From: an uncultured Acidobacteriota bacterium | GTDB lineage: Bacteria; Acidobacteriota; Vicinamibacteria; Fen-336 | Length of the DNA: 64,000 nt | Assembly (NCBI GenBank): GCA_963732935.1 | Contig: CAVTBK010000005.1 | Location: 528,736-592,735 of the forward strand | Direction: 5' to 3' | Shown: positions 1 to 24,776 of the stretch, piece after piece | Numbering within the stretch: position 1 is the stretch's first letter | Layout: each line of letters opens with the position of its first letter | Made by a program: the position numbers and the translations under genes | The notes under the pieces: model-generated | What the model saw: the letters and a program-made list of their open reading frames with translations, nothing else | What the model was told of the DNA's origin: nothing | The model's database searches: none

Positions 1-942
1 TGGCGTCACTACGAGCGGCTGGGCAGCACCTGGCCGATCCAGGCCAAGCGCGGTTGCCCGCTGCCCTGCAACTACTGCCTCTACGGCGCGATCGAGGGCC
101 CGCGCCACAGGCTGCGCCCGGTCGCGGACGTGGTCGACGAGATGGCCTCGGTGAAGGCCGCCGTGCGGCCACGCTGCTTCGAGTTCGTCGACTCGACCTT
201 CAACATCCCCGGCGAGCACGCGCTCGCCCTCTGCGGGGAGATCGAGCGGCGGGGGCTTCGCACGGCCCTCACGGCCCAGGGCGTCAACCCGCTGGGCGCG
301 ACACCGGAGCTGATCGCCGCCATGCGCCGCGCCGGCTTCAACTCCTTCATGGTGAGCGCCGAATCCGCCTCCGACCCGGTGCTGGCGCGCCTCGGCAAGG
401 GCTACACCGCCGCGCACGTCCACCGCGCCCGCGACGCGATGCGCGACTCGGGCATGGTGAGCCTCTGGTTCTTCATGCTGGGCGGCCCGGGCGAGACCGA
501 GCAGACGGTGGAGGAGACGGTGGCCTTCGCCGAACGGAAGCTGGACTGGAAGGGCTGTCTCGCCATCTTCTTCACCGGCATCAGGGTGCTGCCCGGAACC
601 GAGATGGAGCGAATCGCGAAGGCGGAGGGTCAGGTCGACGGGGACGACGACCTGGTGGAGCCTCGCTTCTACCTTTCGCCGGGGCTCGACGAGGGCCGCG
701 TGCTCGACCGAATCCGACGCGCGGTCGCCCTGCGGCCCAACCTGGTGCACGCAGCCGAGGAAGACGCGGTCATCCAGCACGCCATGAACGCGATCCTGCC
801 GCGGATGGGCGTTCCCCCGCCCTACTGGCGGTTCCTGCCCCTCGCTCTGCGCTCGTTCCCGCTCAGGCAGCTCCGTCGCCTGCGCGCCGACTTCGGCGAG
901 ATCCCGCCCCCGAGGGGCGGCCCCGCCGCCGACCTCCGATAG
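1..942 (+). CDS. Radical SAM protein, 5' end outside window (probably the C-terminal rSAM core of a B12-binding class B enzyme)
   Basis: The ORF is open to base 1 in frame 1. Translation begins [28 protein letters not shown], which carries the CxxxCxxC 4Fe-4S/SAM motif. Stop TAG at 940-942. Confidence 0.8.
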
Positions 943-956
943 AATCGCCCTCTATG
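940..956 (+). promoter_or_regulatory. TAGAAT -10-like element 8 nt upstream of the purL ATG (candidate leaderless promoter)
   Basis: TAGAAT at 940-945 overlaps the rSAM stop codon, and the purL ATG is at 954. The same hexamer sits at 31548-31553 (9 nt before the GTG of the NtrC-like gene), 29911-29916 (upstream of the GNAT-nitrilase gene, with a SD) and 37583-37588 (upstream of treY, with a SD). Its reverse complement ATTCTA at 29882-29887 faces the minus-strand TM-helix gene. Confidence 0.35.
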
Positions 957-3900
957 GCCATCCTCGAGCTGCCCGGAGGGGCGGCGCTCTCCGACTTCCG
1001 CCTGGAAAAGCTGAACGCCACGCTGCACCCGCTCGCGCTGTCGGTCCGATCCACCCGGTACTGGCACTTCGTCGAGGTGGACCGCGACCCGACGGCGGAA
1101 GAGACCGCGACGCTCGCGCGGCTCCTCCGCTATGGCCCGGGCCTCGCTCCCCCGCCGGAGCCGACCGGGGTGACCGTGCTCGTCACCCCGCGCCTGGGAA
1201 CCATCTCGCCCTGGTCCTCGAAGGCGACCGACATCGCGCGTCAGTGCGGCCTCGGGCTGGTACGTCGGATCGAGCGCGGCACCGCCTTCGACCTCGCGGG
1301 CGACGGGGAAAGAACCGCCGCGCTCCCCTTCCTGCACGACCGCATGACGGAGACGGTGCTGGCCTCGTTCCAGGAGGCGACCGCCCTCTTCCGTCACGTT
1401 CCGCCCAAGCCTCTGGCCGAGATCGACCTCCAGGGACGCGGACGCGCGGCGATCGAGGAGGCCAACGCCAGCATGGGGCTCGCCCTGGCCCCGGACGAGA
1501 TCGATTATCTGGCGGCCTACTTCGAGGGACACCACCGCAACCCGACCGACGTCGAGCTCACCATGTTCGCCCAGGCGAACTCCGAGCACTGCCGTCACAA
1601 GATCTTCAACGCCGGCTGGATCGTGGACGGCCGGAAGCAACCGCAGTCGCTCTTCCAGATGATCCGGGAGACGGAGAAGGCGAGCCCGACCGGAACGGTG
1701 AGCGCCTACTCGGACAACGCCGCCGTGATGGAGGGTCACAGCGTCCGTCGTTTCCAGGCGGACCCGGCGAGCGGACGCTACCTCTACCAGGAGCAGCTCC
1801 TCCACACCCTGATGAAGGTGGAGACCCACAACCACCCGACCGCCATCTCCCCCTTCCCGGGCGCGGCTACCGGCTCGGGAGGCGAGATCCGCGACGAGGG
1901 GGCCACCGGGCGCGGGGCGAAGCCCAAGGCGGGCCTGTGCGGCTTCTCGGTCTCGAACCTGCGCCTGCCGGGGCACGCGCGGCCCTGGGAAGGCCCGGCC
2001 GGCCAGCCCCGAGCGGATCGCCTCCCCGCTCACGATCATGATCGAGGGCCCGATCGGCGCGGCCTCCTTCAACAACGAGTTCGGCCGTCCCAACATCGCC
2101 GGCTACTTCCGCAGCTACGAGCAGGAGGTCGCCGGCAGCGGTCCGCGGGTACCACAAGCCGATCATGCTGGCGGGCGGGCGTGGGCAACGTCCAGGCCGC
2201 GGCACGCGAAGAAGGCGCGAGCTGCCCGCGGGCGCGCTCCTGATCCAGATCGGCGGACCGGCGATGCTGATCGGCATGGGCGGCGGCGCCGCCTCCTCCA
2301 TGTCGACCGGCACTAACGCCGCAGATCTCGACTTCGACTCCGTCCAGCGCGGCAACGCCGAGATCCAGCGCCGCGCCCAGGAGGTGATCGACCGCTGCAC
2401 GGCGCTCGGCGGCCGGAACCCGATCCTCTCCGTCCACGACGTGGGAGCGGGCGGGCTCTCGAACGCGCTGCCGGAGCTCGTCCACGGCTCCGGCCGGGGC
2501 GCCCGGATCGACCTGCGGGCCGCTCCCAACGAGGAGCCCGGCATGACGCCCCGCGAGGTCTGGTGCAACGAGGCGCAGGAACGCTACGTGCTGGCGATCG
2601 CGCCCGCGGACCTGGACGGTTTCCGCGCGCTGTGCGAGCGCGAGCGCTGCCCGTTCGCGGTGGTCGGCGTCGCCAGCGAGGACCAGCGCCTCGTGGTCCG
2701 ACGATCCCCTGTTCGGCAACGCGCCGGTGGACATGGAGCTGCCGGCGCTGCTCGGCAAGCCGCCGCGCATGACCCGCGAGGCGCGACGGCGTGCAGCGCG
2801 TCGCTGCGCCCTTTCGATGCCGCCGGCATCGAGATCGTCGAGGCCGCGCGACCGCGTGCTGCTGCACCCGGCGGTCGGCGACAAGACCTTCCTGATCACG
2901 ATCGGCGATCGCACCGTCGGCGGCCTGGTCGCGCGCGACCCGATGGTCGGGCCCTGGCAGGTGCCGGTCGCGGACTGCGCCACCACCCTCGCCGGCTTCG
3001 ACGGCTACGCGGGCGAGGCCTTCGCGATCGGCGAGCGCGCGCCGCTCGCGCGTCGCTCGACGCGCCGGCCTCGGGCCGGATGGCCGTCGCCGAGGCCCTC
3101 ACCAACATCGCCGCGGCGCGCGATCTCCACGCTCGCACGCGTCAAGCTCTCCGCCAACTGGATGGCGGCCGCCGGCGCACCAGGCGAGGACGCGGCTCTC
3201 TTCGACACCGTCAAGGCCGTCGCCCTGGATCTGTGTCCGGCAGCTCGGCATCGGCATTCCCGTCGGCAAGGACTCGATGTCCATGCGCACGACCTGGCGG
3301 AGGACGGTCAGGAGCGGCAGGTCGTCGCGCCGCTCTCGCTGATCGTCTCCGCGTTCGCGCCCGTGCGACGACGTGCGCGGGACGCTGGACGCCCCAGCTG
3401 CGCACGGACGCCGGGGAGACCGATCTCGTGCTGGTCGACCTCGCGAACGGGAGGGCCCGCCTCGGGCGGCTCCATCCTGGCCCAGGTCTTCGGCCAGACC
3501 GGAGACGCGCCGCCGGACCTCGACGATCCGCGCGCGCCTGCACGCGCTTCTTCGCGGCCCTCGCGGAGCTGCGGGCCGCCGGTCTCGTGCTCGCCTACCA
3601 CGACCGCTCCGACGGCGGTCTCTTCGTGGCGCCGCCGAGATGGCGTTCGCCGGCCACTCAGGCGTCACGCTCGACCTGACGCCGCTCGCGGGCGAGGCTG
3701 GAGACCCGGCCGCCGCGCTCGCCCTTCTCTTCAACGAGGAGCTGGGCGCCTGCTCCAGGTCCGGTCGAAGAGCTGCCGGCGTGTCCTGGATCTGCTCGCC
3801 GCGCGCGGCCTCCCGGCCCACGTGGTGGGCGCGCCGCGCGAGGACGAGCGCGTCCGGGTCGCGCGCTGGCCGGCCGGATGCTGCTCAACGAGAGCCGGAT

Positions 3901-4865
3901 CGCGCTCTGCACCGCGCTGTGGTCCGACACCACCTTCCGTCTGCAGTGCGCTCCGCGACAACCCGGAGGCGGCGCGCGCAGGAGTACGACCGCCTGCAGG
4001 ACGCGGGCGATCCGGGTTGTCGCCGGCGCTCAGCTTCGACCCGGACGAGGACGTCGCGGCGCCCTTCCTCGCGCGCGGCGTCCGGCCGCGCGCTGGCGGT
4101 CCTGCGCGAACAGGGCGTCAACGGGCAGGTGGAGATGGCGGCGGCGTTCGACCGAGCGGGTTTCGCGACGATCGACGTGCACATGAGCGACATCCTCTCG
4201 GGACGCGTCGTCGCTCGCCGGCTTCGCAGGCTTCGCGGCGCCGCGGCGGCTTCTCCTACGGCGACGTGCTGGGAGGCGGCGAGGGATGGGCCAAGTCCAT
4301 CCTCTTCAACCCCCGGGCCCGCGACGAGTTCGCCGCCTTCTTCGCCCGGACCGACAGCTTCGCGCTCGGCATCTGCAACGGCTGCCAGATGATGAGCGCG
4401 CTCCAGGAGCTGATCCCGGGTGCCGAGGCCTGGCCGCGCTTCGTCAAGAACCGCTCCGAGCAGTTCGAGGCGCGGCTGGTGATGGTCGAGATCCCCGAGA
4501 ACCCCTCGCTCTTCTTCCGGGGCATGGCGGGCAGCCGGATCCCGGTCGTGACCGCTCATGGCGAGGGCCGGGCCCTCTTCACAGACGGCAGGACGCCCGA
4601 GGACGCGATCGTGTGCCTGCGCTTCGTCGACAACCGCGGGCGCGTCAGCGAGAGCTATCCCTACAACGTGAATGGCTCGCCGCGCGGGATCACGGGTGTC
4701 ACCACCGCCGACGGGCGCTTCACGGCGCTCATGCCGCATCCCGAGCGGGTCTTCCGCTCCCTCCAGATGTCGTGGCATCCGGACGGCTGGGGCGAGGACA
4801 GCCCCTGGATGCGCCTCTTCCGCAACGCCCGGGCCTGGGTGGAAGAGGCGTCCGGCCCGCGCTGA
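954..4865 (+). pseudogene. purL: Phosphoribosylformylglycinamidine synthase, large single-chain type, disrupted by many frameshifts
   Basis: N-terminus [20 protein letters not shown] and C-terminus ...[22 protein letters not shown]...FTALMPHPERVF are typical large PurL. Between about 2010 and 4250, conserved PurL segments ([149 protein letters not shown]) are scattered over all three forward frames. At least 12 one-base indels are needed to join them, for example three single-base insertions within about 45 bp near 2170-2215. Confidence 0.8.
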
Positions 4866-4869
4866 CTCC

Positions 4870-5358
4870 CTATCCCGAGGCGCCCGGCTCGCCGCCTCGC
4901 CGACCCGCGCGCAAGCGGCCCAGCAGGCGCAGCAGGCCGATCCGCGAGAGCCAGGCCACGGCACGCCGCTCGGGCCCGAGCCCCAGCCGCACCCGCCGGC
5001 CGCGCCTCTCGGCCCGCGTCACGACGCCCAGGACCTCCGCCCGCGCGACGAGCGGATCGGCTTGCGGCGCCGCGTCCCCGCGCAGGAGAAGACCGTCCTC
5101 CCGGCGTGCCACCAGCCGGTGCACGAGCAGTCGATCCTCGCGCGGCGCGAAGGCCACCACCTCACCCTGAGAGGGTGAAGCGCCCTGGCACGGCGCAATC
5201 GTGAGGACGTCGCCGGCGCGCAGGAAGGGCGCCATGCTGTGGCCGGTCACCTCCAGCCGGACGGCCTGACCGGCGCGCAGCAGGTCCCCCAGCAGACGCG
5301 GAAGCCGGGCGACGGAGGCAGCAGGCGGCGGTTGCTCGGGGAGGTCGGGAGGCAGCAC
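4870..5358 (-). CDS. Small soluble S24/S26-like serine peptidase (Ser-His type, SipW/Sec11-like motifs), translationally coupled to the giant gene
   Basis: 162 aa. Motif VTGHSMAPFLRAGDVL matches the nucleophile-Ser box of LexA/signal peptidase I folds, and LLVHRLV resembles the Sec11/SipW His motif. The GTG start at 5356-5358 directly follows the TAG stop (5359-5361) of the upstream giant gene. No N-terminal TM segment is visible. Confidence 0.6.
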   Translation of the reverse strand: MLPPDLPEQPPPAASVARLPRLLGDLLRAGQAVRLEVTGHSMAPFLRAGDVLTIAPCQGASPSQGEVVAFAPREDRLLVHRLVARREDGLLLRGDAAPQADPLVARAEVLGVVTRAERRGRRVRLGLGPERRAVAWLSRIGLLRLLGRLRAGRRGGEPGASG

Positions 5359-8300
5359 CTAGTCGGGCAGCCGGCTGACCGGCTCGCCCAGCAGATTGTA
5401 CATGTAGCGCGTGGGCACGGCGCTCGCCCCGATCAGCTCCCGTAGCGCCCTCCCCACCGCGTCGCCAACCACCTTCTCGTTCCTCAGGAGGGCCGCCGTG
5501 AAGAAGGACTTGTCGAGCTTCACCGCGAGCGCGTTCTCGGAGAGCCCGGTCGGCGACCAGGCAGCGAAGGCACCCCCGTCCTTCTTGAGGACCATCGTCT
5601 CGGCGAGCGACGCGTAGCCCGGGATCGCGAAGTTCCCGGCCACGCAGGTCATCCCGAGCAGGATCGGCAGCCGGTCCGGGTTGGCGAGCCCCGCGACATC
5701 GCTGCTCGTCCACAGGCCCTCGTCCGCGAAGCGGTCGAGCCCCCCGTGGCCCACGTAGTTGAAGACACCCACGCCCGCGTTCAGGGCGTCGCGGATCGCC
5801 TTCCGCCCGGAGGCGGCCGTCGTGGTGGTGAGATAGACCTTGGCCGCGGCGTAGCCGGGCGGCAGCAGGGCGGCGACCGCGTCGCTGTCGGCCGTGAACG
5901 CCCCGGCCCCGTCGGGGTTGTCGGCGGCCATCAGCACCGCGTGCTGCCAGGCCTCGCCGGGCGCGCTCTCCTGGCGCTCGATCTTCGCGAGGTAGTCCAG
6001 AAGCTCCTGCGAGGTGACCACCGGGAGCCGGCCGATCGCGACCTCCGGGATCCCGTCGTCTCCGCGCAGATCAGCGAGACGCACGTCCGAGACGAAGAGC
6101 CCGTTGGCCGAGCTCGCCATCAGCGGCGGGACCAGGTTGTCGCCCACGCCCATCACGTCCTTGTAGTCCCAGGTGCCGCGTCCCACGAGCGTGACGTAGC
6201 GAGGCGGCGTCTGCCAGGAGGCGGTCGCGTAGCGCAGGAACGCGCGGATCGCGGTCGGTTCCGGGATCCCTCCGTTGAACTCCGAGTAGATGGCGGTGAG
6301 CGGGGCAACCATCGTGCGCAGCCCGTTGCGGTTCCGGTAGTCGGCCAGCGCCGCCGCGGCCGGCTCGAGCGAGTCGGGGGCGATCAGGACGTACTCGGCC
6401 ACGTTGTGCCGGTCCCGCAGCGTCGGCTGCCGGGAGGCCACGACCGCGAGGGGCGCCAGGGCGCGCTGCCGGACGAGCGCCAGGTAGCGCCCGCTACTGG
6501 CAGCGACGGCACCGAAACGGATCCGATAGCCTTCGCCAGGCACGGCCGTGGTCGTGTGCGAGAGCAGCCTCGGGCTCGCCGGCGTCGTCACGTCGAGCAG
6601 CAGCACGTCGGCGGACGAGAAGCCGCTGATCTCGACCGCCGCCCCGCGCGGGGCCGCGAAGGCGAGAGTATCGTCGACCGCGCGGTACTGCCGCGCGTAG
6701 CCGAGGTCGACCGAGTCCAGGTAGACGACGTCCTCGGGGACACCGGCGTCGTGAACGGCCCGGACTTCGAGCGTGTTGTCGCCTTCCCGCACCTCGCCGG
6801 CCAGCATCGGGATCTGGATCAGGTGAGGGCCGAGGCCACCCCAGGAGTCCTCGCCCACGGTGCTGCCGTTCCACGAGACGGTGACGTGGTGGTCGATCTC
6901 GGCGGCGTCGTCCGACCCGCCCGCCATCCGAATCGTGAGCGAGGCCGAGCCCGCTGCGACCACGCCCACGGCCGGGACCGTCACGCTGGCCGTGTCGAGA
7001 CCCTCGTAGCCGGCGAGTGCGTAGGCCCAGAACCAGAAATCGCCGTCCGGGTCCTGCACGACCGAAGGTGCCGCAAAGACATCCTCTTCCCGATGCACCG
7101 TCTCCTGGAAGAAGGCCGCCGCGCCGCCCCGGCCGTCGGTCGCGACGGCGCTCATCGTCGCTCCCGAGCCCACGCCGATCTGGTACACGTTCTCGTCCGT
7201 GTAGATGCCGGTTGCAGGCTCGGCGTAGAAGAAGATCCCGGCGTCGAGCGCGTCGGGCAGGTAGGGCACGGGCTGCCCGCGATGGGCCACCACCAGCTGC
7301 CGGGTACGGATCAGGACGCGGGCGGTGTCCGGCGTCAGGCCCGCCGGGACGGCGATCTCGTCGGCCGCGACGTAGTAGAGCCCGCTCTGCCGGGTCGTCA
7401 GCTCGACCCACCCGCCGCGCCAGCTGCGCCGCGCCGCGGCCGCCGCCCGCTGTTGGGCATTGGCCTCCTGGGCCCGCTGCTGGGCGAGCTGCGTCATGGG
7501 GGCGGGCTGACGACCGAAGAGCAGGTCCTTCATCGCGAGACTCCCGCCGGCCGCCGACGAGGCCACGCTGGACATGCCGCCCGCCGACGAGGCCACGCTG
7601 GACATCGCGGCCGCCTGGGCCAGGGACGCTGCCGCGGCGCCCTGTCCGCTGAGCCAGGGCGAGGGCCCCGCCAGAACGGAGAGGACCGTCTTCGCGCGGT
7701 TCCCCGCCACGGACGACCCGAGCGACCTCATGCTCGGCTCGGGGTCGGCGGCGACCGAAGCTGCCGTCTCGGACGGCGCGACCGTGTAGGGGCCGTGCGC
7801 CTGCTCGACTCCCCGCGCGTCGACCTCCACGAGCATGTAGCTCGACGGGCCCTCCGCCTCGGCCCCGAAGTCAGTGAAGCGGTAGGTCCCGCCCTCTGGA
7901 TGGCCGAGCAGGCCCGGCACCAGCCGCTCGTCGAGGCGCTTCCACTCCCGGCTGACGGTGTCGAATCGGAAGATGTGGAAGCCTCGTGTCCCGACCTCCA
8001 CCGACGTCCGCCACTCGACCACGACCGCCCCGCCCGTCAGATGGGTCCTGAACGACGCCACGTTGGCGAAGGTCACCTGTGGCGGGCGGAAACCGAAGTC
8101 GACGCCGGACACGTCGGCGCTGCTGAGGTCGACCGTCTCCTGCAGATCGAAAGGCCCTGTCGTCCCCTCCGTCCTCTCGTAGGTCGCGGAGAGTCCCGCC
8201 AGCACGCCGTTGACGTCGGTCAGCTCCACCGTGTACGTGCCGGCCGCGAGACCCTGCACGGAGTAGATCCCGTCCGCGTCGGTCGTCAAGCCAGCGATCA

Positions 8301-11300
8301 CCGTTCCACCGGAGAGGACGTCGAGCGTCACCCCGGCAATGCCCGTCTCGCCCGTATCGAGGACGCCGTTCCCGTTGGTGTCGTTCCAGACGACTCCGGA
8401 AAGCGAGCGCGACACGAGGGCCTGGAAGCCGAAGTCCGCCCCCCAGTAGCTGACGCCGCCCGTGATCGTCGCGTTCAGCTGGAGCCCCGCCAAGACCGGG
8501 TCCGCGTCCGTGCCGGTGAACGCGTAGCCGGTCAGGGCCGGCACGCTCACGACGTAGCTGCCGTCGCCCAACCCGGCGAACACGTAGTGCCCGTTGGCAT
8601 CCGTCGTGGTCGTGTAGAGCGGGGTACCACCCTGGTAGAGCTGGACCACGACTCCGGGGATGCCACCCTCGCCGGAGTCCTGCACGCCGTTGCCGTTGGT
8701 GTCGAAGTAGACCGTGTCGCCGATGGCGCGCGTCGCCCGGAAGCCGTAGCTCGGCGACGAGCGCCGATCCCGGTCCGCGGTGAGGTTGCTCTCGGCGCGC
8801 CGGCGGGCCACGGCCCAGGTCGTCGTCCCCGCAAAGTCGGCGAGCACGCCACCCGTGTCACTGACGCGCGTCGTGTAGTTCGCGCCACCGCCGGTGACGC
8901 CGCTGAAGCTGAAGGTGCCGTCGGCCGCGCTGACGGCCGTGCCGATCACGTTGAGGCTCGCGTCCAGGAGGTCGACGCTCACCCCGGCGATCCCGCTCTC
9001 GCTGCCGCTGTCCCAGAGGCCGTTGCCGTTCAGGTCGAACCAGACGCGATCGCTGATCGCGTAGGTGGTGACCGTGCTTCCCGTGAAGCCGAAATCCGCG
9101 GTCACGTACGCGGTGCCAGCGACGACGTTCGGGAAGTAGTAGGTGCCCGGCGTGGTCAGGGCGTAGCCGCCCGGCGTCTGCACGGCGACGAAGTAGTCCT
9201 CGCCGCCGGTCAGACCGCTGGCGGTCAGCAGGTAGTGGCCGTCGACGCCGCTGGTCGTGGTCTGGATCGGGGTCGTCTCGCCCGCGTCCAGGACACCGTT
9301 CCCGTTCGCGTCCAGCAGAAGGCTCACGGTGGCGCCGGCGTAGGCGACTTCGCCCGCGTCGCGCAGGCCGTTCCCGTTCGCGTCCACCCACACCTGATCG
9401 CCGAAGAGAACCGTCCCGGTCGCGGGCCGATAGCCCAGGTCCGCGCTCGTGTAGCTGTCTCCGCGGGCGAGGTTGAAGGGCACCGAGCGGTTGCCGCCGT
9501 AGACGGCCGGGTTCGGATAGGACTGCGAGACACCGGCCGGCAGCCCTCCGGTGACCTCCACGTAGTAGCCGTCCCCGGGCGCCACGGTCGGGAACAGATA
9601 GCGGCCGCCGACGTCCGTGTACAGCGTGCCGAGCGGCGTTCCCCAGACGTCCTTCAGCGTGACCTCGACGTTCGCGATCCCCGACTCGCCGAAGTCCTGG
9701 ACGCCGTCCCCGTCGGCGTCGAGCCAGATGCGTCCCGCGACACTCGCGCTCACGACACTCGGGTTCGTGACGATGTTCGTGGCCGAGGCGCTCACCTGGA
9801 TGGGAAGCTGAACCGACGTTGTCGAGGCCGTGTTGGTGATGGAGCTGATGCCGGTCGGCAGCGGTGCGTCGACGGTGACGTTGAAGGTGGCCGTCAGGGT
9901 TCGACCCGCCGCCAGCGCGTAACCGTATGCGCTCGGCAGCAGATCGGGGGGATTGCTCCCGCTCACGGCCCTGTCGTATGTGATCGAGAGATTGTCGACG
10001 TAGAAGTACTCGCCGTTCTCCGCGTAGTCGCTAGCCGCCGGAATGCTGAACCTCACCTCCGTCAGGCCAGCGGGGGCAGCCAGGGGGATCGCGAACGTGG
10101 CGACCCCGGACACGTCGTCGGAGTAGGTGGCAAGTGTCATCCAGGCGCCACCGCCTCCTAGGCGGTATTGAACCGCGATGTCGTCCGTCGGCTCGAGATT
10201 GTTCGACGTCCGGTAGTCGAAAGCGAGCTCGGCCCAGGTCGCGCCACTCCCGGCCAGGTCGACGCCGCGTGAAATGGCGGGAGTGGCCGCGCTATAGCTG
10301 ATAGCCAGGTTGTCGACGTAGAAGTACTCGTTGTTCTCGTAGCTGGTCGTGTAGATCCTTATGGTCGTCGTCGCGGACAGCAGACCGGCCGGGATCGCGA
10401 AGTTGACGGTCCCGGTGTGATCGTTCTGGAAGTTCAGCACGGTCGTCCAGGGCCCCGCGGGGCTCGAGGCGACGTCGATCCACATATAGTCGCCGTTGTC
10501 GACGTTGCCGCTCGTCGTGTAGTTGCAGGTGATCGTTGCAGCGGTGGCCCCGGCTAGGTTGACCTGCCGGTAGATCGTCTGGGCGTTGCCCCCGAGGCGG
10601 AGCTGTCCGTTCAGGATCCGGATGTCGCCCGCGTTCGGTCCGTCGCCCTGGCTGTCGACCCAGTTGCCGTTCCAGTTCGTCGTGCCGTCGTTGTTGTTGT
10701 AGGCCGCCGTTCCGAAGTCGTCTTCCACGGTGCTGGGGGGCGTCAGGTAGCTGGTGAGCCTGAGCTCGCCACCGGTCACACGCACCACCCCGGTCGCGGG
10801 GGCGGCGTCGTCTTGCGTCTCTACCCAGCTGCCGGTCCAGTTCCGCGAGCCGTTGTTGTTGCCGTACGCTACGGTGTCGAAGCGATCGGCCACCGACGAG
10901 GCACTGAGAATCGTCGTCCCCGAGACCGAGCTCACTCCTGCGGGAAGCATGTCGTAGAGGGTGACCCCGGTCAGCGTGGTTCCGGAGCCCGCGGGGTTCG
11001 AGACCGTCGTCGTGTAGGTGAGTGTGTCGCCGGGATAGACGGGGGTCGCCTCCGGGACGCTCGAGGCCTTCGTGATCTGGACCGTGGTGCCGGCGGTGCC
11101 TTCCGAGACCACGTAGGTGAAGTCCTTGGTGGTGAAGGTCTGCGTCACGCCGCTCACCGTTCGCGTCCCGACTGCCTGCACCCGGTTTTGACTCAGCGTG
11201 CCTTCGGGCAGCGCCACTGTCGTCCGGGCCGTGAACGTGACCACGATCGACTGGTTGGGGGCCATGGCCCCGCCGGTCTGTGCGGTCGACCAGACGAGAG

Positions 11301-13212
11301 TCTGGCCGGTCGCGGGCACGCCGCTGGTGGCGGGATCAGCACCTGCACCGCTGAGCGTCGTCAAGTCAGGTCGGGTGACGGTGGTCGTCCCCGAGACGTA
11401 CTGCCAGTTCGGGGGAAGGTAGTCGGTGACCGTCACGCTACCCACCGTGTATTTTTCCGACCTCACGGCGAGCGTGAAGGTCGCCTGCGAACCGGACGCG
11501 GTCGGGACCACCTGAGGTGTCACCGACTTGGTCACGCCCAGCACGAGCGAGATGAAGTCGGTGCCGGGGATTGCCACGTAGCCGAGGTCCAGCGCGGGCG
11601 CGCCAGTCGGGGCGTTGTTCGAGTTCTGGCCGTACGCCATGCTGAAGAGCCCGGTCGCCCAGATCCGGGCGCCCGAGAGGTCGCCGTCGTTCGGGTCGTA
11701 GATATACTGGCTCTGCAGGCGGCTCAGGGTGTAGGTCTGGTCGATCGTCCCGTCGTTGTCGTAGTCGACGAACACGGTCGTGTTGTCCTGGGCGGCGATC
11801 AGAAAGGCGCCCATGTCGCTTCTGTCGCCGGCGGCGCAGGTCGTCGGGTAGCAGTCGGGCGCCCAGCCGAAGAAGTGCTCCCGGTAGAGCATCGTGGACG
11901 GGAGCAGGCTGTATCCCCACTCGTGCGCCTGCCCCTCGGAGTCGTTGGAGCCCACCCCCCAGAAGACGTCGCTGCCCCGCAGGTAGAGCCCCGAGCCGGC
12001 AGGCAGGTTGCCCGCCAGCGCGCGGAAGGACACCGCGCTGGTGGCGGGGATGTTGAAGAAACCGGAGGTCGTCTCGGTGGACCAGTCGATCCTGATCGAC
12101 GCCGCGTTCGGGTTGTAGAGGTAGTAGTCGGTGTAGCCGTTCGCCGTGCTGGTGGGCTGGTCGAGCGGGGCGTAGTAGTCGGTCGTCCAGAAGCCGCGGG
12201 GGAAGGCGCTGAAGCCGCGCGTGTTGTAGGTGTCGTTGGTGTTGCCCGCGATGTACTTCACCTGCAGCGTGTCGCTGCCGGTGATGATCGCCCCCTCCGC
12301 CAGGTTGCCGGCCGCGACGTGGGCGCTGGTGTCGTCGAGCAGGAAGGTCTGCCCCTCCTGCAAGGTCACCGAGTAGGCGTCGAGGGCGCCGTTCCTGTCG
12401 GTGTCGAGCTGATCGGCCGTGCCGTCGTGGTTGAGGTCGAAGGTTACCGTCGTGTTGTTCTTGGTCGCCTGGACCAGCACGGCCACGTGCTCGAAGCCGT
12501 GCCATCCACGTGTCTCGCCGAAGGGAAGCACGTAGGTCGTGAGCTGCGGCTTGATCGGGTAGATCTCCCAGGCGGCTCCCTGGACCCCGACGGTTCCGCC
12601 CCGGGCGGCATTCTCGTCCAGCCAGCCCACCCGCGTGACCGTGACCACCCCGCCGGCGACGTAGATGCGATCCCCCCCGTCGTAGCAGGTGGTGCTGTTG
12701 GTCCCGCCCCTGATCACCGTCGAGGTGCCCCCGGCCCGGTAGAGCGTGGCCGAGTAGGTGCCGCACTGGGTCGCCGGTGGGTTGGGGGGCGCGCTGGGGT
12801 AGGTGTTCCAACGCGGGAGCGCGATCGTGCCGCTGTCGAAGACCAGACGGTCGCCGGTGTTGAGGGCGTGGCCGCTGGCCACGTCATAGGTCTCATCCGC
12901 GGTGGCGGGATTCGCGGGGTCGAAACCGTAGCCGTTCTCCCAGTGGTCGAAGTAGACGGTCGTGTTGTCCGACCAGGCCGTCACGCTGATCACGACGTGT
13001 GTGTGGACGGGGTTCGGGCACGGGTACGCCCAGGCGCCGTAGACGCAGAGGACGCGGCCCATGTTGTCCTCGTCGCCTGGGATGAAGTACTCGGAGTACC
13101 CGGCCGCGACCTGGGCCATGGCCGGCGATGCGGCCAGGACGAGGAGGAGCGCCAGGGCACCCCGGCGCCATGCCTTGAGAGCACGGAAGGTCGTCGTCAG
13201 AGCAAGAATCAT
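5359..13212 (-). CDS. Giant secreted multidomain protein (about 2617 aa): signal peptide, three N-terminal repeats, DUF11-like repeats, two lectin/CBM-like modules, about six Cna-B/SdrD-type repeats, Ala/Ser-rich linker, C-terminal peptidase C25 (gingipain-like) domain
   Basis: Single ORF. The likely start is the ATG at 13210-13212 (MILALTTTFRALKAWRRGALALLLVLAASPAMA-QV, a signal peptide); the ORF track extends to 13410 through an in-frame upstream region with no ATG start. Repeats of the SdrD-B type (VWLDADGDGVQDFGESGIANVEVTL, VWVDANGNGLRDAGE, VWFDLNGNGLWDSGSE, VYFDTNGNGVQDSGE, VWNDTNGNGVLDTGE). The C-terminal 340 aa align to gingipain catalytic-domain motifs (YVTLVG, NYVGHGG, LGMTCVAGNF). 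Confidence 0.85.
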   Translation of the reverse strand: MILALTTTFRALKAWRRGALALLLVLAASPAMAQVAAGYSEYFIPGDEDNMGRVLCVYGAWAYPCPNPVHTHVVISVTAWSDNTTVYFDHWENGYGFDPANPATADETYDVASGHALNTGDRLVFDSGTIALPRWNTYPSAPPNPPATQCGTYSATLYRAGGTSTVIRGGTNSTTCYDGGDRIYVAGGVVTVTRVGWLDENAARGGTVGVQGAAWEIYPIKPQLTTYVLPFGETRGWHGFEHVAVLVQATKNNTTVTFDLNHDGTADQLDTDRNGALDAYSVTLQEGQTFLLDDTSAHVAAGNLAEGAIITGSDTLQVKYIAGNTNDTYNTRGFSAFPRGFWTTDYYAPLDQPTSTANGYTDYYLYNPNAASIRIDWSTETTSGFFNIPATSAVSFRALAGNLPAGSGLYLRGSDVFWGVGSNDSEGQAHEWGYSLLPSTMLYREHFFGWAPDCYPTTCAAGDRSDMGAFLIAAQDNTTVFVDYDNDGTIDQTYTLSRLQSQYIYDPNDGDLSGARIWATGLFSMAYGQNSNNAPTGAPALDLGYVAIPGTDFISLVLGVTKSVTPQVVPTASGSQATFTLAVRSEKYTVGSVTVTDYLPPNWQYVSGTTTVTRPDLTTLSGAGADPATSGVPATGQTLVWSTAQTGGAMAPNQSIVVTFTARTTVALPEGTLSQNRVQAVGTRTVSGVTQTFTTKDFTYVVSEGTAGTTVQITKASSVPEATPVYPGDTLTYTTTVSNPAGSGTTLTGVTLYDMLPAGVSSVSGTTILSASSVADRFDTVAYGNNNGSRNWTGSWVETQDDAAPATGVVRVTGGELRLTSYLTPPSTVEDDFGTAAYNNNDGTTNWNGNWVDSQGDGPNAGDIRILNGQLRLGGNAQTIYRQVNLAGATAATITCNYTTSGNVDNGDYMWIDVASSPAGPWTTVLNFQNDHTGTVNFAIPAGLLSATTTIRIYTTSYENNEYFYVDNLAISYSAATPAISRGVDLAGSGATWAELAFDYRTSNNLEPTDDIAVQYRLGGGGAWMTLATYSDDVSGVATFAIPLAAPAGLTEVRFSIPAASDYAENGEYFYVDNLSITYDRAVSGSNPPDLLPSAYGYALAAGRTLTATFNVTVDAPLPTGISSITNTASTTSVQLPIQVSASATNIVTNPSVVSASVAGRIWLDADGDGVQDFGESGIANVEVTLKDVWGTPLGTLYTDVGGRYLFPTVAPGDGYYVEVTGGLPAGVSQSYPNPAVYGGNRSVPFNLARGDSYTSADLGYRPATGTVLFGDQVWVDANGNGLRDAGEVAYAGATVSLLLDANGNGVLDAGETTPIQTTTSGVDGHYLLTASGLTGGEDYFVAVQTPGGYALTTPGTYYFPNVVAGTAYVTADFGFTGSTVTTYAISDRVWFDLNGNGLWDSGSESGIAGVSVDLLDASLNVIGTAVSAADGTFSFSGVTGGGANYTTRVSDTGGVLADFAGTTTWAVARRRAESNLTADRDRRSSPSYGFRATRAIGDTVYFDTNGNGVQDSGEGGIPGVVVQLYQGGTPLYTTTTDANGHYVFAGLGDGSYVVSVPALTGYAFTGTDADPVLAGLQLNATITGGVSYWGADFGFQALVSRSLSGVVWNDTNGNGVLDTGETGIAGVTLDVLSGGTVIAGLTTDADGIYSVQGLAAGTYTVELTDVNGVLAGLSATYERTEGTTGPFDLQETVDLSSADVSGVDFGFRPPQVTFANVASFRTHLTGGAVVVEWRTSVEVGTRGFHIFRFDTVSREWKRLDERLVPGLLGHPEGGTYRFTDFGAEAEGPSSYMLVEVDARGVEQAHGPYTVAPSETAASVAADPEPSMRSLGSSVAGNRAKTVLSVLAGPSPWLSGQGAAAASLAQAAAMSSVASSAGGMSSVASSAAGGSLAMKDLLFGRQPAPMTQLAQQRAQEANAQQRAAAAARRSWRGGWVELTTRQSGLYYVAADEIAVPAGLTPDTARVLIRTRQLVVAHRGQPVPYLPDALDAGIFFYAEPATGIYTDENVYQIGVGSGATMSAVATDGRGGAAAFFQETVHREEDVFAAPSVVQDPDGDFWFWAYALAGYEGLDTASVTVPAVGVVAAGSASLTIRMAGGSDDAAEIDHHVTVSWNGSTVGEDSWGGLGPHLIQIPMLAGEVREGDNTLEVRAVHDAGVPEDVVYLDSVDLGYARQYRAVDDTLAFAAPRGAAVEISGFSSADVLLLDVTTPASPRLLSHTTTAVPGEGYRIRFGAVAASSGRYLALVRQRALAPLAVVASRQPTLRDRHNVAEYVLIAPDSLEPAAAALADYRNRNGLRTMVAPLTAIYSEFNGGIPEPTAIRAFLRYATASWQTPPRYVTLVGRGTWDYKDVMGVGDNLVPPLMASSANGLFVSDVRLADLRGDDGIPEVAIGRLPVVTSQELLDYLAKIERQESAPGEAWQHAVLMAADNPDGAGAFTADSDAVAALLPPGYAAAKVYLTTTTAASGRKAIRDALNAGVGVFNYVGHGGLDRFADEGLWTSSDVAGLANPDRLPILLGMTCVAGNFAIPGYASLAETMVLKKDGGAFAAWSPTGLSENALAVKLDKSFFTAALLRNEKVVGDAVGRALRELIGASAVPTRYMYNLLGEPVSRLPD
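5362..6395 (-). other. Peptidase C25 (clan CD, gingipain-like) catalytic domain at the C-terminus of the giant protein
   Basis: aa about 2340-2683: VLIAPDSLEPAAAALADYRNRNGL...PRYVTLVGRG...IPEVAIGRLPV...NYVGHGGLDRF (candidate His, codon about 5746-5748) ...PILLGMTCVAGNF (candidate Cys, codon about 5644-5646). No recognisable T9SS, PEP-CTERM or LPXTG C-terminal sorting signal follows. Confidence 0.7.
7551..7610. repeat. Near-perfect 30-bp tandem duplication inside the giant gene linker
   Basis: ccgccgacgaggccacgctggacatgccgc followed by ccgccgacgaggccacgctggacatcgcgg. It encodes the duplicated SSVASSAGGM/SSVASSAAGG within an Ala/Ser/Gln-rich low-complexity linker. Confidence 0.7.
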
Positions 13213-13419
13213 CGGGCCCCCGCGGCCAGAAAACGCCTGTCGGAGCATAGCCGGGGTGGCTGAGAATACGTCGTGTTTCCGGACACATCGCACCACGCCT
13301 GTGATCCAACGCAAGTGCGATGCCGCGTCGCAAGTCGCTTGTTTGCAGCAAATTCGCGACGTGATCCTGTCCGGGTTCCGGACGCGGGGTCCGATCCGGA
13401 CCCGCAACACGCCGAGTCG
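13213..13419 (-). promoter_or_regulatory. AT-richer 207-bp intergenic region upstream of the giant gene, with three TCCGGAC motifs and CGCAAGT direct repeats
   Basis: TCCGGAC occurs at about 13277-13283, 13374-13380 and 13395-13401, around the palindromic core TCCGGA. cgcaagtgcga and cgcaagtcgc lie at 13311-13338. GC is locally lower (aaattcgcgacg, ttgtttgcagcaaatt). Confidence 0.3.
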
Positions 13420-14596: not shown

Positions 14597-15631
14597 CTAC
14601 TCGTCGAGCAATGCGGCGATCGCCCGCCAGCGGGCCTCGCCGAGCGCGCAGTAGTAGTCGGACTTGCGCTGCGGGCTCCCCGTCTCCATGCCGGCCTGCG
14701 CCGGACACAGACCGCACAGGAAGCGCTTCTCGCAGGAGTGACATTCGTAGCCCGGCTCGACCGGCTGCTCCCGGAAGCCGGGCAGGACGGTCTCCCACCC
14801 TTCCCGGAAGCTGCCTCGACGCAGGTCGAAGCCGTGCGACGAGGCCATCAGACACGGCAGCAGCGTGCCCTCCGGGTCCACGTGGAAGCCGGTCAGGCCG
14901 GCCCCACACGAGAAGAGGCGCTGCTCGGGTGCTGCGCCGCGCACCTTTCGAAAGTACTCGGCGGTGAGACGCAGCAGGCCCTCGTCCTCCATCTCCAGAG
15001 CCACCGTCTGCTCCGGCGCGACGCGGTGGTCGAGCGGGGTCCGGCAGCCGTCGCGGCACGGGAAGAGCGCTCCGTCGATCCGGAACGCGAGCTGCCGCTC
15101 CTCCGCCAGCCCGCGCATTGCCCGGACCTCGTGCAGGTTCTCACGCATGACCACGGTCTTGAGGGCGACCGGGATGCGCCGGGCGACGAGCGCATCGACG
15201 CCGGCCAGGCAGCGCCGGTAGGAGCCGGGCACGCCCGTCACCCCCTCGTAGACCTCGGCGCTCGCCCCGTAGAGCGAGACCTCGACCATCTCCGGTGTGA
15301 GCCGCTCGAAGAGCGAGACGAGCCGCTCGTCGACGAGCGTGGCGTTGGTGAAGACGGTGACCAGGATGCCGCGGCGCGCGGCCCGCTCGTACACCTCGGC
15401 GAAGTCGCGTCGCAGCAGGGGCTCCCCGCCCGTGATCAGGAGGTTCAGGCATCCGGCGTCCGCCACCTGGTCGACCAGCGACAGCCAGAAGGCGGTCGCG
15501 CGCTCGCGGGGCTCGAGACCGCCCTGCCGCTCGTCGCCCAGGTAGCAGTGCAGACAGCGCAGGTGGCAGCGGTGGGTCATGGCGATCGAGCCGCTCAGGG
15601 GGACCCTGGCCGCCCGCGCACGCTCCAGCAT
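14597..15631 (-). CDS. Radical SAM/SPASM-domain peptide-modifying enzyme
   Basis: CHLRCLHCY is a CxxxCxxC motif soon after the likely start MLERARA. The C-terminal Cys-rich twitch/SPASM region reads YECHSCEKRFLCGLCPAQAG...YYC. The track ORF extends to 15763, overlapping pqqD; the true start is uncertain (ATG near 15630). Confidence 0.8.
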   Translation of the reverse strand: MLERARAARVPLSGSIAMTHRCHLRCLHCYLGDERQGGLEPRERATAFWLSLVDQVADAGCLNLLITGGEPLLRRDFAEVYERAARRGILVTVFTNATLVDERLVSLFERLTPEMVEVSLYGASAEVYEGVTGVPGSYRRCLAGVDALVARRIPVALKTVVMRENLHEVRAMRGLAEERQLAFRIDGALFPCRDGCRTPLDHRVAPEQTVALEMEDEGLLRLTAEYFRKVRGAAPEQRLFSCGAGLTGFHVDPEGTLLPCLMASSHGFDLRRGSFREGWETVLPGFREQPVEPGYECHSCEKRFLCGLCPAQAGMETGSPQRKSDYYCALGEARWRAIAALLDE

Positions 15632-15680
15632 CGCCGTGATCCGCGCGTGAACGGCGTCGGCATGCGGTGCGGCGCCCACC

Positions 15681-15983
15681 TCAGCTCCTCCGCTCGGCGA
15701 TGCCAGCCTCGGCCAGCCGCTCCACGAAGGCTCGGAGGTCCACGCGAGCCTCCTCGGCGCCAACCTCGTAGTGGTCCAGGATGGCGGCGAGCACGGCCTC
15801 CAGCGACCGCTCGCCGTCCAGCAGTTCCCAGACGAAAGCGCCGACGCCGGTCACCATGAAGATCGACTTCAGCTCGGCCGCGTCCCGCCGGATCGGCACC
15901 AGCAACCGCTCACCGGCCACGTCCCGGAGGATGACGTCGTTTCGCCGCGCGAAGACGGCGTCCGCAGCGTTCTGCTGAGGCAT
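15681..15983 (-). CDS. PqqD-family peptide chaperone (RRE domain)
   Basis: MPQQNAADAVFARRNDVILRDVAGERLLVP...IFMVTGVGAFVWELLDGERSLEAVLAAILDHYEV...RAFVERLAEAGI is the canonical PqqD fold signature. The ATG at 15981-15983 is preferred over the track's TTG at 16025. Confidence 0.8.
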   Translation of the reverse strand: MPQQNAADAVFARRNDVILRDVAGERLLVPIRRDAAELKSIFMVTGVGAFVWELLDGERSLEAVLAAILDHYEVGAEEARVDLRAFVERLAEAGIAERRS

Positions 15984-16042: not shown

Positions 16043-17555
16043 TGTTGTTGACAAGTGAAATGTCCGCTTGGTTTTGACAAGTGATCGGTCCGCTTTTCGC
16101 TAGGCCTTCGATGTGGCGTGCAGGGTCGGAGTGCCAGCCGGAGGGAGCCGGAGGCGACCGGAGGCTGGCACTGCAGCGGCGGCCGCCCGCCGCTTCGAGG
16201 GCCTGTAGCTGCTGATCGCGGGGACGACCTGAGAGTCGACCCGAGCTGCGTTCGTCGATCCTGGGGCATCCTGGCGCGTCGGTCTGCTCGGCTCGGGCGC
16301 GCGAGCCCGACCCTCCGCGCTGTAGGAGCCGAGGAGCTGGGCACCACGGCGAATCGTGTAGCCTCCGTCGAGGTGGCGGCGGACCTGGACCGCAAGCCCC
16401 GCGCAGGTGTGGCGCCCCGGCTGCTTCGCGATCTGCAGCACGGTTCCTTCGAGGCTGACCGTGTTGTCCCTACGTACCGTGCGGTCTTCGTACTCGAAGA
16501 AGATCCCATTGAGATCAACCTCACCGAGCCCCACGAAAGCACTCTCGGGATCGGAAGCCTCGCAGGCGAACTCCTCGTTGTGCGTCGGGATGTAGCGCTC
16601 GCCTAGATATCGATTCGCCGCCTCTACCGTCGTGATCCCGGCCGCGCGCAGCTCGTTCACCAGCCGGTCCTGCAAAGTGCGATTCATCCGCTCAGAGCGG
16701 CCGCGTCCTTGGGGCGAGTAGGACGGGATGTGCTCGACCCCGAGCCGATCCAGCGCCTCCCCGACTTGGGTCAAGACCGTCTTGCTGACCTTGCCCCCGG
16801 CCTTCGGAGTCTCGAAAGCCCACCCCGCTCGGTCCGTGTAGAACGACTCGGGGATGCCATGCTGCCGCACCAGCTCCGCCATCGCTGTCATCACGGCGCG
16901 GGTCGTCTCTCCTGGCCACAGTTGCGCATAGAGCACCCGCGAGGTCGCATCGTCCACCGACTGAATCAGCGTCTGCTTTTCCCCGGGCACCAGCGCCAGC
17001 CAGGCATGGAGGCTGCCGTCCAGGTGCAGCATCTGACCGAAGCGGGGCTTCCTCGGTCTCCTCATCCGGTGTCGACCTCGAGCCTTACGTTTCTCGATCA
17101 GACCCGCCCCCTGCAGGATCTGCTTCACGCACGTGTACGACAGCTTCACTCCGTGCTCCCGGCGTACCGTCGAGCAGAAGTGCCGAGCGTTGAAGCCCCG
17201 ATAGCGGTCCCGATACAGCTGCAGGATCCGCTCGATTTCCGCCACCGCTGTCCGCCGTGGAGACGGTCGGCCGCACCGCCGGTCGACAAGCCCCTCGTAC
17301 CCGAACCGCTCCATCCTCTGCCGCACCCGCCTCAAGCCTCGAGGCGTAATCCCCAGGATCTCCGCAGCCCGAAGCCAGCTGTACTCCTTGTTCATCGTCC
17401 GCAGCAGCACTTCCTTGACCTGCATGGCCCGCTCCACAGCCGAGAGCGGAAAGTCCATGGCCACCTCCACCGGCGGCCATACACCCCTTCTTCCCGGCTG
17501 GCAAAAGCGGACATTTCACTTGCTCTCGAGAGCGGACCGATCATGTGCTCTCTAC
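16043..17555 (-). mobile_element. Insertion sequence (about 1.5 kb) with IS481/ISNCY-like rve transposase and composite terminal repeats
   Basis: Single transposase ORF at 16100-17470. Each end carries two sub-repeats, CAAGTGAAATGTCCGCTT and TGATCGGTCCGCT, in inverted orientation (left 16050-16098; right 17505-17553 as reverse complement). It is bounded by the 18-bp direct repeat. Confidence 0.75.
16100..17470 (-). CDS. DDE (rve/integrase-core) transposase with N-terminal HTH, IS481/ISNCY-like
   Basis: 456 aa. N-terminal HTH region (WLRAAEILGITPRGLRRVRQR), then integrase-core DDE residues: LHLDGSLHAW, ...IQSVDDATSR (D), ...FYTDRAGW (D), ...SERMNRTLQDR (E). It appears intact. Confidence 0.85.
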   Translation of the reverse strand: MEVAMDFPLSAVERAMQVKEVLLRTMNKEYSWLRAAEILGITPRGLRRVRQRMERFGYEGLVDRRCGRPSPRRTAVAEIERILQLYRDRYRGFNARHFCSTVRREHGVKLSYTCVKQILQGAGLIEKRKARGRHRMRRPRKPRFGQMLHLDGSLHAWLALVPGEKQTLIQSVDDATSRVLYAQLWPGETTRAVMTAMAELVRQHGIPESFYTDRAGWAFETPKAGGKVSKTVLTQVGEALDRLGVEHIPSYSPQGRGRSERMNRTLQDRLVNELRAAGITTVEAANRYLGERYIPTHNEEFACEASDPESAFVGLGEVDLNGIFFEYEDRTVRRDNTVSLEGTVLQIAKQPGRHTCAGLAVQVRRHLDGGYTIRRGAQLLGSYSAEGRARAPEPSRPTRQDAPGSTNAARVDSQVVPAISSYRPSKRRAAAAAVPASGRLRLPPAGTPTLHATSKA

Positions 17556-24438: not shown

Positions 24439-24657
24439 ATGCTGCGCATCGTCGGCTTGCTGCTGCTCGTCCTGGGACTCGCCGGTCTCGCCGCCGGGGC
24501 CTTCCACTACACGCGCCACAAGACGGTCCTCGACGTGGGACCGCTCCAGCTCCACGCCAACACCCGGCAGACCGTGACCATCCCGCCGCTCCTCGCGGGC
24601 GGCGTCGCCGTGGTGGGCGCCGCGCTCACGGTGGCAGGCCTGCGTCGTCGGCGATAG
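24439..24657 (+). CDS. Small two-TM membrane protein (DUF3185-like)
   Basis: MLRIVGLLLLVLGLAGLAAGAFHYTRHKTVLDVGPL...IPPLLAGGVAVVGAALTVAGLRRRR. Confidence 0.45.
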   Translation: MLRIVGLLLLVLGLAGLAAGAFHYTRHKTVLDVGPLQLHANTRQTVTIPPLLAGGVAVVGAALTVAGLRRRR

Positions 24658-24776
24658 ACTCGCGGGCCTCGGAGCTCAGCCTCATCCCCGCCGACGGGAA
24701 CGTCCTCCTGCCTCCGGAGTCCCATCCGTCGCTCGACGCGCTGCGGGCCCGATCCGTCGCGAAGGCTTGAGCCCGG

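Follow-up and report, generated by a model that had tools for sequence, protein, structure and literature searches.

Frameshifts clustered in purL of a Vicinamibacteria contig probably reflect a local consensus failure in a long-read assembly

The purL gene of this contig is broken by 26 frameshifts that lie together in one interval of about 2.2 kb, and the coding sequence is otherwise in perfect condition. Judging from the sequence, it is very probable that the cluster arose where consensus building or polishing of a long-read assembly failed locally, and the organism most likely carries a normal, functional purL of the large type. The preliminary description of the locus had left two alternatives, a local assembly or polishing failure and genuine pseudogenization. 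Our results favor the former; the latter was unsupported, as there is no substitution decay and both ends of the gene are spared. The window, which is the whole 64-kb stretch of DNA that was analyzed, contains the gene close to one end. PurL starts with an ATG at 954 and stops at 4863-4865 on the + strand, and its parts are the following.

954-4865, + strand: purL, gene for a large single-chain FGAM (phosphoribosylformylglycinamidine) synthase, in 27 in-frame pieces as deposited
954-2243, + strand: publicly recorded ORF (P0001; 429 aa), the last ~80 residues of which are out-of-frame read-through
954-1994, + strand: 5' part of purL, uninterrupted in frame 0 and covering the N-terminal domain, the linker, and the beginning of the synthetase domain, with no frameshift against any reference
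1995-4241, + strand: indel-dense patch with 26 frameshift sites at a mean spacing of ~86 nt
1995-2218, + strand: first sub-cluster, 5 single-base insertions (1995, 2137, 2177, 2199, and 2218)
2219-2701, + strand: frameshift-free stretch of 483 nt within the patch, in frame 2
2702-4241, + strand: second sub-cluster, 21 frameshift sites
4242-4865, + strand: 3' part of purL, uninterrupted in frame 0 (glutamine amidotransferase domain), with no frameshift
4365-7358: flank matched by Logan contig ERR11571143_405126 (here L083), which was assembled independently from k-mers of a public sequencing run

Frameshifts were counted by protein-to-DNA dynamic-programming alignment with frameshifts permitted. 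Against each of 3 intact full-length Vicinamibacteria PurLs (P0124, P0125, and P0127), 26 frameshifts were required; the earlier count of at least 12 was correct, yet too low. A Chromatiaceae PurL (59% identical) required 22, and the frameshift-corrected purL of the related contig L081 required 28. The two extra sites with L081, at 3887 and 3916, compensate for each other and are unneeded with the intact references. In addition to the 5 sites of the first sub-cluster, approximate positions were 2702, 2790, 2852, 3048, 3119, 3240, 3298, 3360, 3385, 3464, 3531, 3550, 3626, 3751, 3861, 3947, 3978, 4018, 4092, 4210, and 4241. The preliminary description had noted three insertions of one base each in about 45 bp; these are the sites at 2177, 2199, and 2218. 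Each event shifts the frame by one or two bases: 19 of the 26 sites have one extra base and 7 have either two extra bases or one missing base, so that insertions make up 73% of the indels in the patch.

As a result of the 26 interruptions, an uninterrupted ORF of about 1290 codons is absent from the deposited purL, and the longest product called from it has 429 aa. This product, P0001, derives from an NCBI/ENA contig of 1,133,459 bp and is the exact translation of 954-2243 with its out-of-frame tail included, which means that the frameshifts are present in the deposited sequence. Antisense ORFs, such as 2069-2986 and 3099-3821 (- strand), also overlie the patch and were taken to be the usual artefacts of high-GC DNA.

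The boundaries of the patch are sharp. All sites are confined to 2247 of the 3912 nt of purL, for which P is about 4e-6 if sites are uniform (calculated with the 28-site list from L081). Within the patch, a gap as long as 2219-2701 is no more than mildly unusual for 26 events (about 0.09 by our own estimate). The termini had been called intact in the preliminary description, and both were found to share frame 0 with zero frameshifts. Frame 0 is regained exactly for the last 208 codons, and the amidotransferase motifs GICNGCQ, HGEG, and PHPER (MPHPER) are visible in the frame-0 translation of the 3' part. The Logan contig, 5.4 kb long and retrieved by an exact protein look-up of the S24-peptidase ORF, was 100% identical to 4365-7358 over 2994 nt with zero gaps; it stops at 4365, outside the patch. 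The same kind of look-up gave no entry for P0001 or for the malate/lactate dehydrogenase-like ORF. What defines the patch is a DNA interval and not the purL gene.

When the indels are removed, the purL translation is a complete protein of 1286 aa. It matched NCBIfam model NF003672 in a single stretch over positions 3-1290 of 1290 with 1949.9 bits (cut-off 783), compared to 1971-2009 bits for six intact homologues, and matched TIGR01735 with 1823.3 bits (cut-off 1123). The corrected protein therefore has the end-to-end match, normal score, and conserved motifs of the large single-chain PurL of the E. coli and Salmonella type, unlike which the deposited ORF is broken 26 times. Near-invariant columns were defined as those with at least 98% conservation across 99 homologues. 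Of these, 0 of 123 were altered in the 5' part, 1 of 269 in the patch, and 0 of 75 in the 3' part, so that the whole corrected protein kept 466 of 467; intact homologues had 0-3 altered under the same test. Identity to intact homologues was no lower in the patch than in the flanks. Patch identity to an outgroup PurL was 60.1%, compared to 58.7-60.5% for three close relatives and 63.0% for L001, a short-read Vicinamibacterales contig. At most 9 other gapped codons were found against any intact reference. No in-frame stops occur in the corrected patch codons, and GC3 is 0.935 in the corrected patch, 0.913 in the 5' flank, and 0.940 in the 3' flank. The corrected full-length PurL is indistinguishable from functional orthologues, and the damage in the patch is nearly all indels.

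These results bear directly on whether purL could be a very recent genuine pseudogene in an organism that lives on purine salvage or has a second FGAM synthase (purLQS) elsewhere. The disabling frameshifts do stand in the deposited consensus, and purL as written cannot yield a full-length product. There is also no second purL within the window, so a copy may lie elsewhere in the genome. However, spontaneous bacterial mutation produces roughly ten substitutions per indel in mutation-accumulation studies, and the patch has zero substitution decay by any measure (stops, GC3, near-invariant columns, and HMM score). We simulated 26 random substitutions, one per indel, dropped into the patch. Even at this 1:1 ratio about 7 conserved columns were altered, and the probability of at most 1 altered column and no stop was about 0.001, which rejects the ratio; at 3:1 or 10:1, zero runs gave the observed pattern. 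Once the first frameshift had occurred, the whole gene would be neutral, but its first 1040 nt and last 620 nt are free of lesions, at the same P of about 4e-6 as above. Bacterial genomes are usually deletion-biased, whereas insertions exceed deletions here; the sites have no association with homopolymers, and no indel is big enough to leave an alignment gap. Bacterial pseudogenes of reductive evolution likewise carry multiple frameshifts in a biosynthetic gene, but purL differs from them in having no constrained-site substitutions, stops, larger deletions, or lesions at its ends. Taken together, these data make genuine pseudogenization very unlikely.

The sequence around the 26 sites was also informative. 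No homopolymer enrichment was found at the sites, where the mean longest run within 3 nt was 1.77 compared to 1.96 at random positions, and homopolymer slippage was rejected on this basis. A common slippery motif across the 26 sites was not found either. The latter result concerns the idea that recoding, through programmed ribosomal frameshifting or transcriptional slippage, corrects the purL frame during expression. The coding information is wholly preserved across the shifts, and nothing else speaks in favor of recoding. Known programmed frameshifts, to our knowledge, involve one site per gene and rarely two; purL has 26 sites of both signs. Comparison with orthologous loci, a check already proposed in the preliminary description, showed that the intact Vicinamibacteria PurLs (P0124, P0125, and P0127) and L001 are uninterrupted at these codons. 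Recoding is already effectively refuted by the absence of both conservation and a motif.

The remainder of the window was scanned for frame switches with a codon-position-GC Viterbi model over the 64 kb. Outside the purL patch (~60 kb), no other frame switches without a stop codon were found. Most of the 18 neighboring proteins tested span their Pfam models end to end. It had been stated that the other genes of the window are uninterrupted, and both results agree with this. Because the remaining window is clean, the purL lesion is local rather than genome-wide. The 3-base periodicity was 0.34-0.36 in the patch, 0.42 in coding sequence, and 0.11-0.25 in the other segments called non-coding, with the exception of 24634-24769 (136 nt, 0.37). 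Concealed error patches elsewhere in the window were rejected, since the other non-coding segments lack codon periodicity. No Rfam or tRNA matches were found in the window.

Two further origins of the patch were considered and rejected. A collapsed repeat, previously suggested as a cause, had no support within the window, where the patch matches itself alone and no second copy of it exists. A chimera with another lineage was rejected because region-wise identities follow the pattern of the relatives. Protein searches for a near-identical independent copy of the patch found none above 85% identity with a 768-aa corrected query (among proteins up to ~1.75 times the query length), and none above 82% identity with a 114-aa query adjoining the end of the Logan contig.

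In related long-read MAG contigs, frame switches without stop codons numbered 31 in 17.8 kb of L082, 7 in 17.6 kb of L081, and 3 in 15 kb of L004, a Microflora Danica MAG; the short-read contig L001 had zero. The long-read relatives come from Flye-style 'contig_N' ENA assemblies and one Microflora Danica MAG. The share of +1 events was 33 of 41 in L082, L081, and L004 combined, compared to 19 of 26 in the purL patch. Many Vicinamibacteria assemblies have an intact purL of 1285-1296 aa. A broken purL as a lineage-specific feature was rejected, because the positions of the breaks differ between relatives and neighboring genes are broken at a similar rate. The indel density of the patch is near 1.2% (about 12 per kb), compared to ~0.2% in L082, the worst of the related contigs. 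Given a density so far above that of L082, something special must have happened at the purL patch.

One alternative would be a real local burst of indel-only mutation that destroyed purL in a soil Vicinamibacteria population too recently for substitutions to accumulate, for example if a ~2-kb patch had been resynthesized by an error-prone, frameshift-prone polymerase during break repair and had then been fixed. Sharp boundaries and near-zero substitutions are what a single patch event is expected to leave, and GCGC/CGCG was weakly enriched near the sites (12 of 26 compared to 6.3 expected; P about 0.016, uncorrected). However, such a burst would inactivate a gene of central biosynthesis and must nonetheless dominate the population, and the same +1-biased frameshifts are scattered over the related long-read contigs, where their technical nature is plain. 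No process known to us in bacteria would introduce single-base indels at ~1% over 2 kb and yet leave no substitutions. We regard a mutational burst as extremely unlikely.

A technical origin of the cluster could have arisen in more than one way. The source contig, like its nearest relatives in the databases, probably comes from an assembly of the Nanopore-only, metaFlye plus Medaka type, and the draft sequence of the ~2.2-kb interval may have missed effective polishing. A local fall in usable read depth could have been the cause; alternatively, reads of related strains that co-occur could have been drawn in. Errors in Nanopore consensus sequences are usually homopolymer deletions. The sites in the patch are off homopolymers and mostly insertions, which agrees with the relatives' contigs and not with the textbook Nanopore profile. 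The purL patch resembles the frameshift errors of Nanopore consensus sequences, as measured by the IDEEL test (the share of predicted proteins that are full-length), in that one-base indels split a conserved gene whose underlying coding sequence is otherwise perfect, and related long-read MAG contigs are alike in this. It differs in that typical errors are scattered, tied to homopolymers, and deletion-biased, whereas those in purL are packed into one 2.2-kb interval, off homopolymers, and insertion-rich. It is known that gene calls become fragmented by indels in Nanopore consensus sequences, and near-finished genomes require ~40-fold coverage (PMC9262707). The long-read MAGs of Microflora Danica were built from Nanopore data only, and this type of frameshift error has been acknowledged for them (PMC12313526).

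An otherwise clean contig of a long-read MAG can conceal a kilobase-scale patch of near-raw-read quality, and genome-wide quality scores would overlook such a patch. Fragment proteins in databases that derive from this contig, such as the 429-aa P0001 with its out-of-frame tail, are artefacts. If the indels were real, they would represent an unusual, localized, indel-only mutagenesis, for which the evidence leaves little room. It would be wrong to count purL as missing from this contig, or to class the organism as a purine auxotroph.

Conserved PurL peptides jumped among the frames of a three-frame translation of purL, and the number of frameshifts was determined with a purpose-written protein-to-DNA alignment that tolerates frameshifts, using several PurL references. 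A 59%-identical Chromatiaceae PurL gave 22 shifts, and the purL of L081, a close relative, gave 28 after its own frameshifts had been corrected. Three Vicinamibacteria PurLs that are intact and full-length (79-81% identity) each gave 26 at essentially identical positions. The 2 extra sites found only with L081, at 3887 and 3916, offset one another over 29 nt; neither is required by the intact references, with which "LLNESR", read without a break, agrees. We, therefore, took the count to be 26, of which 19 sites have one surplus base and 7 have two surplus bases or one missing base. The preliminary description, which had noted at least 12 indels in the central part of the gene, was thus correct about the cluster but low in number, and the three insertions that it placed within about 45 bp are those at 2177, 2199, and 2218. 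The gene and its neighbors, in a window of approximately 72% G+C, are as follows.

130-942, + strand, radical-SAM gene ending upstream of purL
954-4865, + strand, purL, large single-chain FGAM (phosphoribosylformylglycinamidine) synthase
4870-5358, - strand, S24-like peptidase gene, 3' of purL and immediately downstream of the 2683-aa ORF
5359-13410, - strand, 2683-aa ORF; five SdrD_B repeats, and a Peptidase_C25 (gingipain-like) domain at the C terminus

The top protein matches were from Vicinamibacteria (Acidobacteriota). In the vicinity of the giant ORF are two radical-SAM genes and one gene for an HTH_32 (homeodomain-like) protein, at 130-942 (+), 14597-15763 (-), and 16100-17470 (-). There were no tRNA genes in the 64-kb window and no matches to Rfam families at the gathering threshold.

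The first frameshift lies at approximately 1995 and the last at approximately 4241, a span within purL that has P ~4e-6 under a uniform spread (computed on the 28-site L081 list). Inside this patch, 2219-2701 is free of frameshifts for 483 nt, and the patch may therefore be two adjacent error clusters. The same alignments showed 954-1994 and 4242-4865 to be free of frameshifts, with a single frame shared by the two ends, as first described. The database protein P0001 (429 aa, from a 1.13-Mb NCBI/ENA contig) is identical to translated 954-2243, down to its out-of-frame tail, so the frameshifts are present in the public record. A Logan contig from run ERR11571143 (L083) matched window 4365-7358 at 100% identity, and this independent support covers the flank only; for the patch itself, database protein searches found no independent sequence that was near-identical. 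The end of L083 at 4365 is 124 nt 3' of the last frameshift and immediately precedes ten highly conserved codons of the amidotransferase active site. Since k-mers common to related genomes at these codons could cut short a contig built from a de Bruijn graph, the closeness of this end to the patch was given little weight.

When the indels were removed computationally, the reading contained no stop codons. GC3 was 0.935 in the corrected patch compared to 0.913 and 0.940 in the flanks, and identity to intact homologues was as high in the patch as in the flanks. Over the same columns, outgroup identity was 60.1%, compared to 58.7-60.5% for three close relatives and 63.0% for the short-read contig L001. 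When the corrected sequence was aligned with 99 full-length homologues, 269 columns with conservation of 98% or more fell within the patch, which departed at 1 of these, 11 nt from an ambiguous site; intact homologues departed at 0-3 in leave-one-out comparisons. The corrected protein scored 1950 bits against the NCBIfam model NF003672, covering 3-1290 of 1290, compared to 1971-2009 for six intact homologues.

Random substitutions were then simulated on the patch codons, with changes at the 269 conserved columns and stops as the readout. At 0.5 substitutions per indel, 3.4 conserved-column changes were expected, and the probability of at most 1 change with no stop was 0.075; at 1 substitution per indel, the values were approximately 7 and 0.001. 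No simulation gave so clean an outcome at 3 (approximately 21 changes expected) or 10 substitutions per indel (approximately 65 changes and 5 stops). The lesions, therefore, arose by a process that produced essentially only indels. In bacteria, spontaneous mutation yields about ten base substitutions per indel, favors deletions, and places indels at homopolymers. In contrast, insertions made up 73% of the sites, and homopolymers were not enriched at the 26 sites (longest run within 3 nt, mean 1.77 compared to 1.96 for random positions). Of these sites, 12 had GCGC or CGCG no more than 4 nt away, compared to 6.3 expected, a weak enrichment (P ~0.016, uncorrected) at positions uncertain by a few bases. 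Moreover, a purL inactivated at 1995 would be neutral along its entire length, yet both ends carry no lesion and the amidotransferase domain returns exactly in frame 0. With no substitution decay to accompany the indels, genuine recent pseudogenization, one of the two explanations originally offered, is improbable. A real, localized burst of indel-only mutation is more doubtful still, and recoding of purL has a negligible probability.

Third codon positions are approximately 91-94% G+C at the base composition of the window, which allowed a seven-state Viterbi scan of G+C by codon position to track frames without a reference. Outside purL, all coding segments stopped in their own frame, allowing for same-frame neighboring genes, and by a stricter count frame switches lacking a stop occurred in purL and nowhere else in the window. 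This agrees with the early observation that the other genes are uninterrupted. Three-base periodicity was 0.34-0.36 in the patch compared to 0.42 in true coding sequence; other segments called non-coding were weakly periodic (0.11-0.25), except for 24634-24769 (136 nt, 0.37). Most of 18 neighboring proteins tested matched Pfam domains end to end. There were, then, 26 frameshifts in 2.25 kb compared to none detectable across the other ~60 kb.

Intact purL genes of 1285-1296 aa are present in dozens of relatives. Among database relatives with long contigs, the closest come from long-read metagenome assemblies: L004, a Microflora Danica MAG, and L081 and L082, "contig_N" records of ENA analyses ERZ25039596 and ERZ25039490. 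Their purL genes are also broken, with 2, 3, and 6 interruptions at different positions, and their neighboring genes are broken at a comparable rate. Frame switches lacking a stop numbered 31 in L082 (1-17818, 17.8 kb), 7 in L081 (1-17599, 17.6 kb), and 3 in L004 (1-15058, 15 kb), compared to none in the short-read Vicinamibacterales contig L001; 33 of the 41 (about 80%) were +1. Because of these switches, the annotated proteins of the three long-read contigs are widely fragmented. Microflora Danica long-read MAGs were assembled from Nanopore data only, with Flye (--meta --nano-hq) and one Medaka polishing to cut indel errors (PMC12313526), and Nanopore consensus indels fragment gene calls in a coverage-dependent manner (PMC9262707). 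In its +1-dominated error type, the patch therefore resembles lower-quality contigs from this kind of data, with the errors packed into a single stretch of a contig that is good elsewhere. Separately, the Serratia sp. L9 "complete genome" (NZ_CP192591.1; L007 ~8240) has one purL frameshift, where five G occur in a row.

Taken together, the indel-only damage, the pristine underlying gene, the confinement to one interval, and the agreement in error spectrum with related long-read contigs indicate that the cluster very probably arose where consensus building or polishing of a long-read assembly failed locally, the other explanation originally offered. Indel density in the patch is near 1.2%, with substitutions at most approximately 0.6% (a bound from the simulation), values within the range of single-read-quality Nanopore sequence. 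We infer which platform and assembler produced this contig, as well as the immediate cause of the patch: a local fall in usable depth could have left near-raw draft sequence, or the polisher could have been confused by reads from co-occurring related strains. The purL frameshift cluster is very probably not a real biological feature, and its practical use is as a caution in annotating this contig and its fragment proteins in databases.
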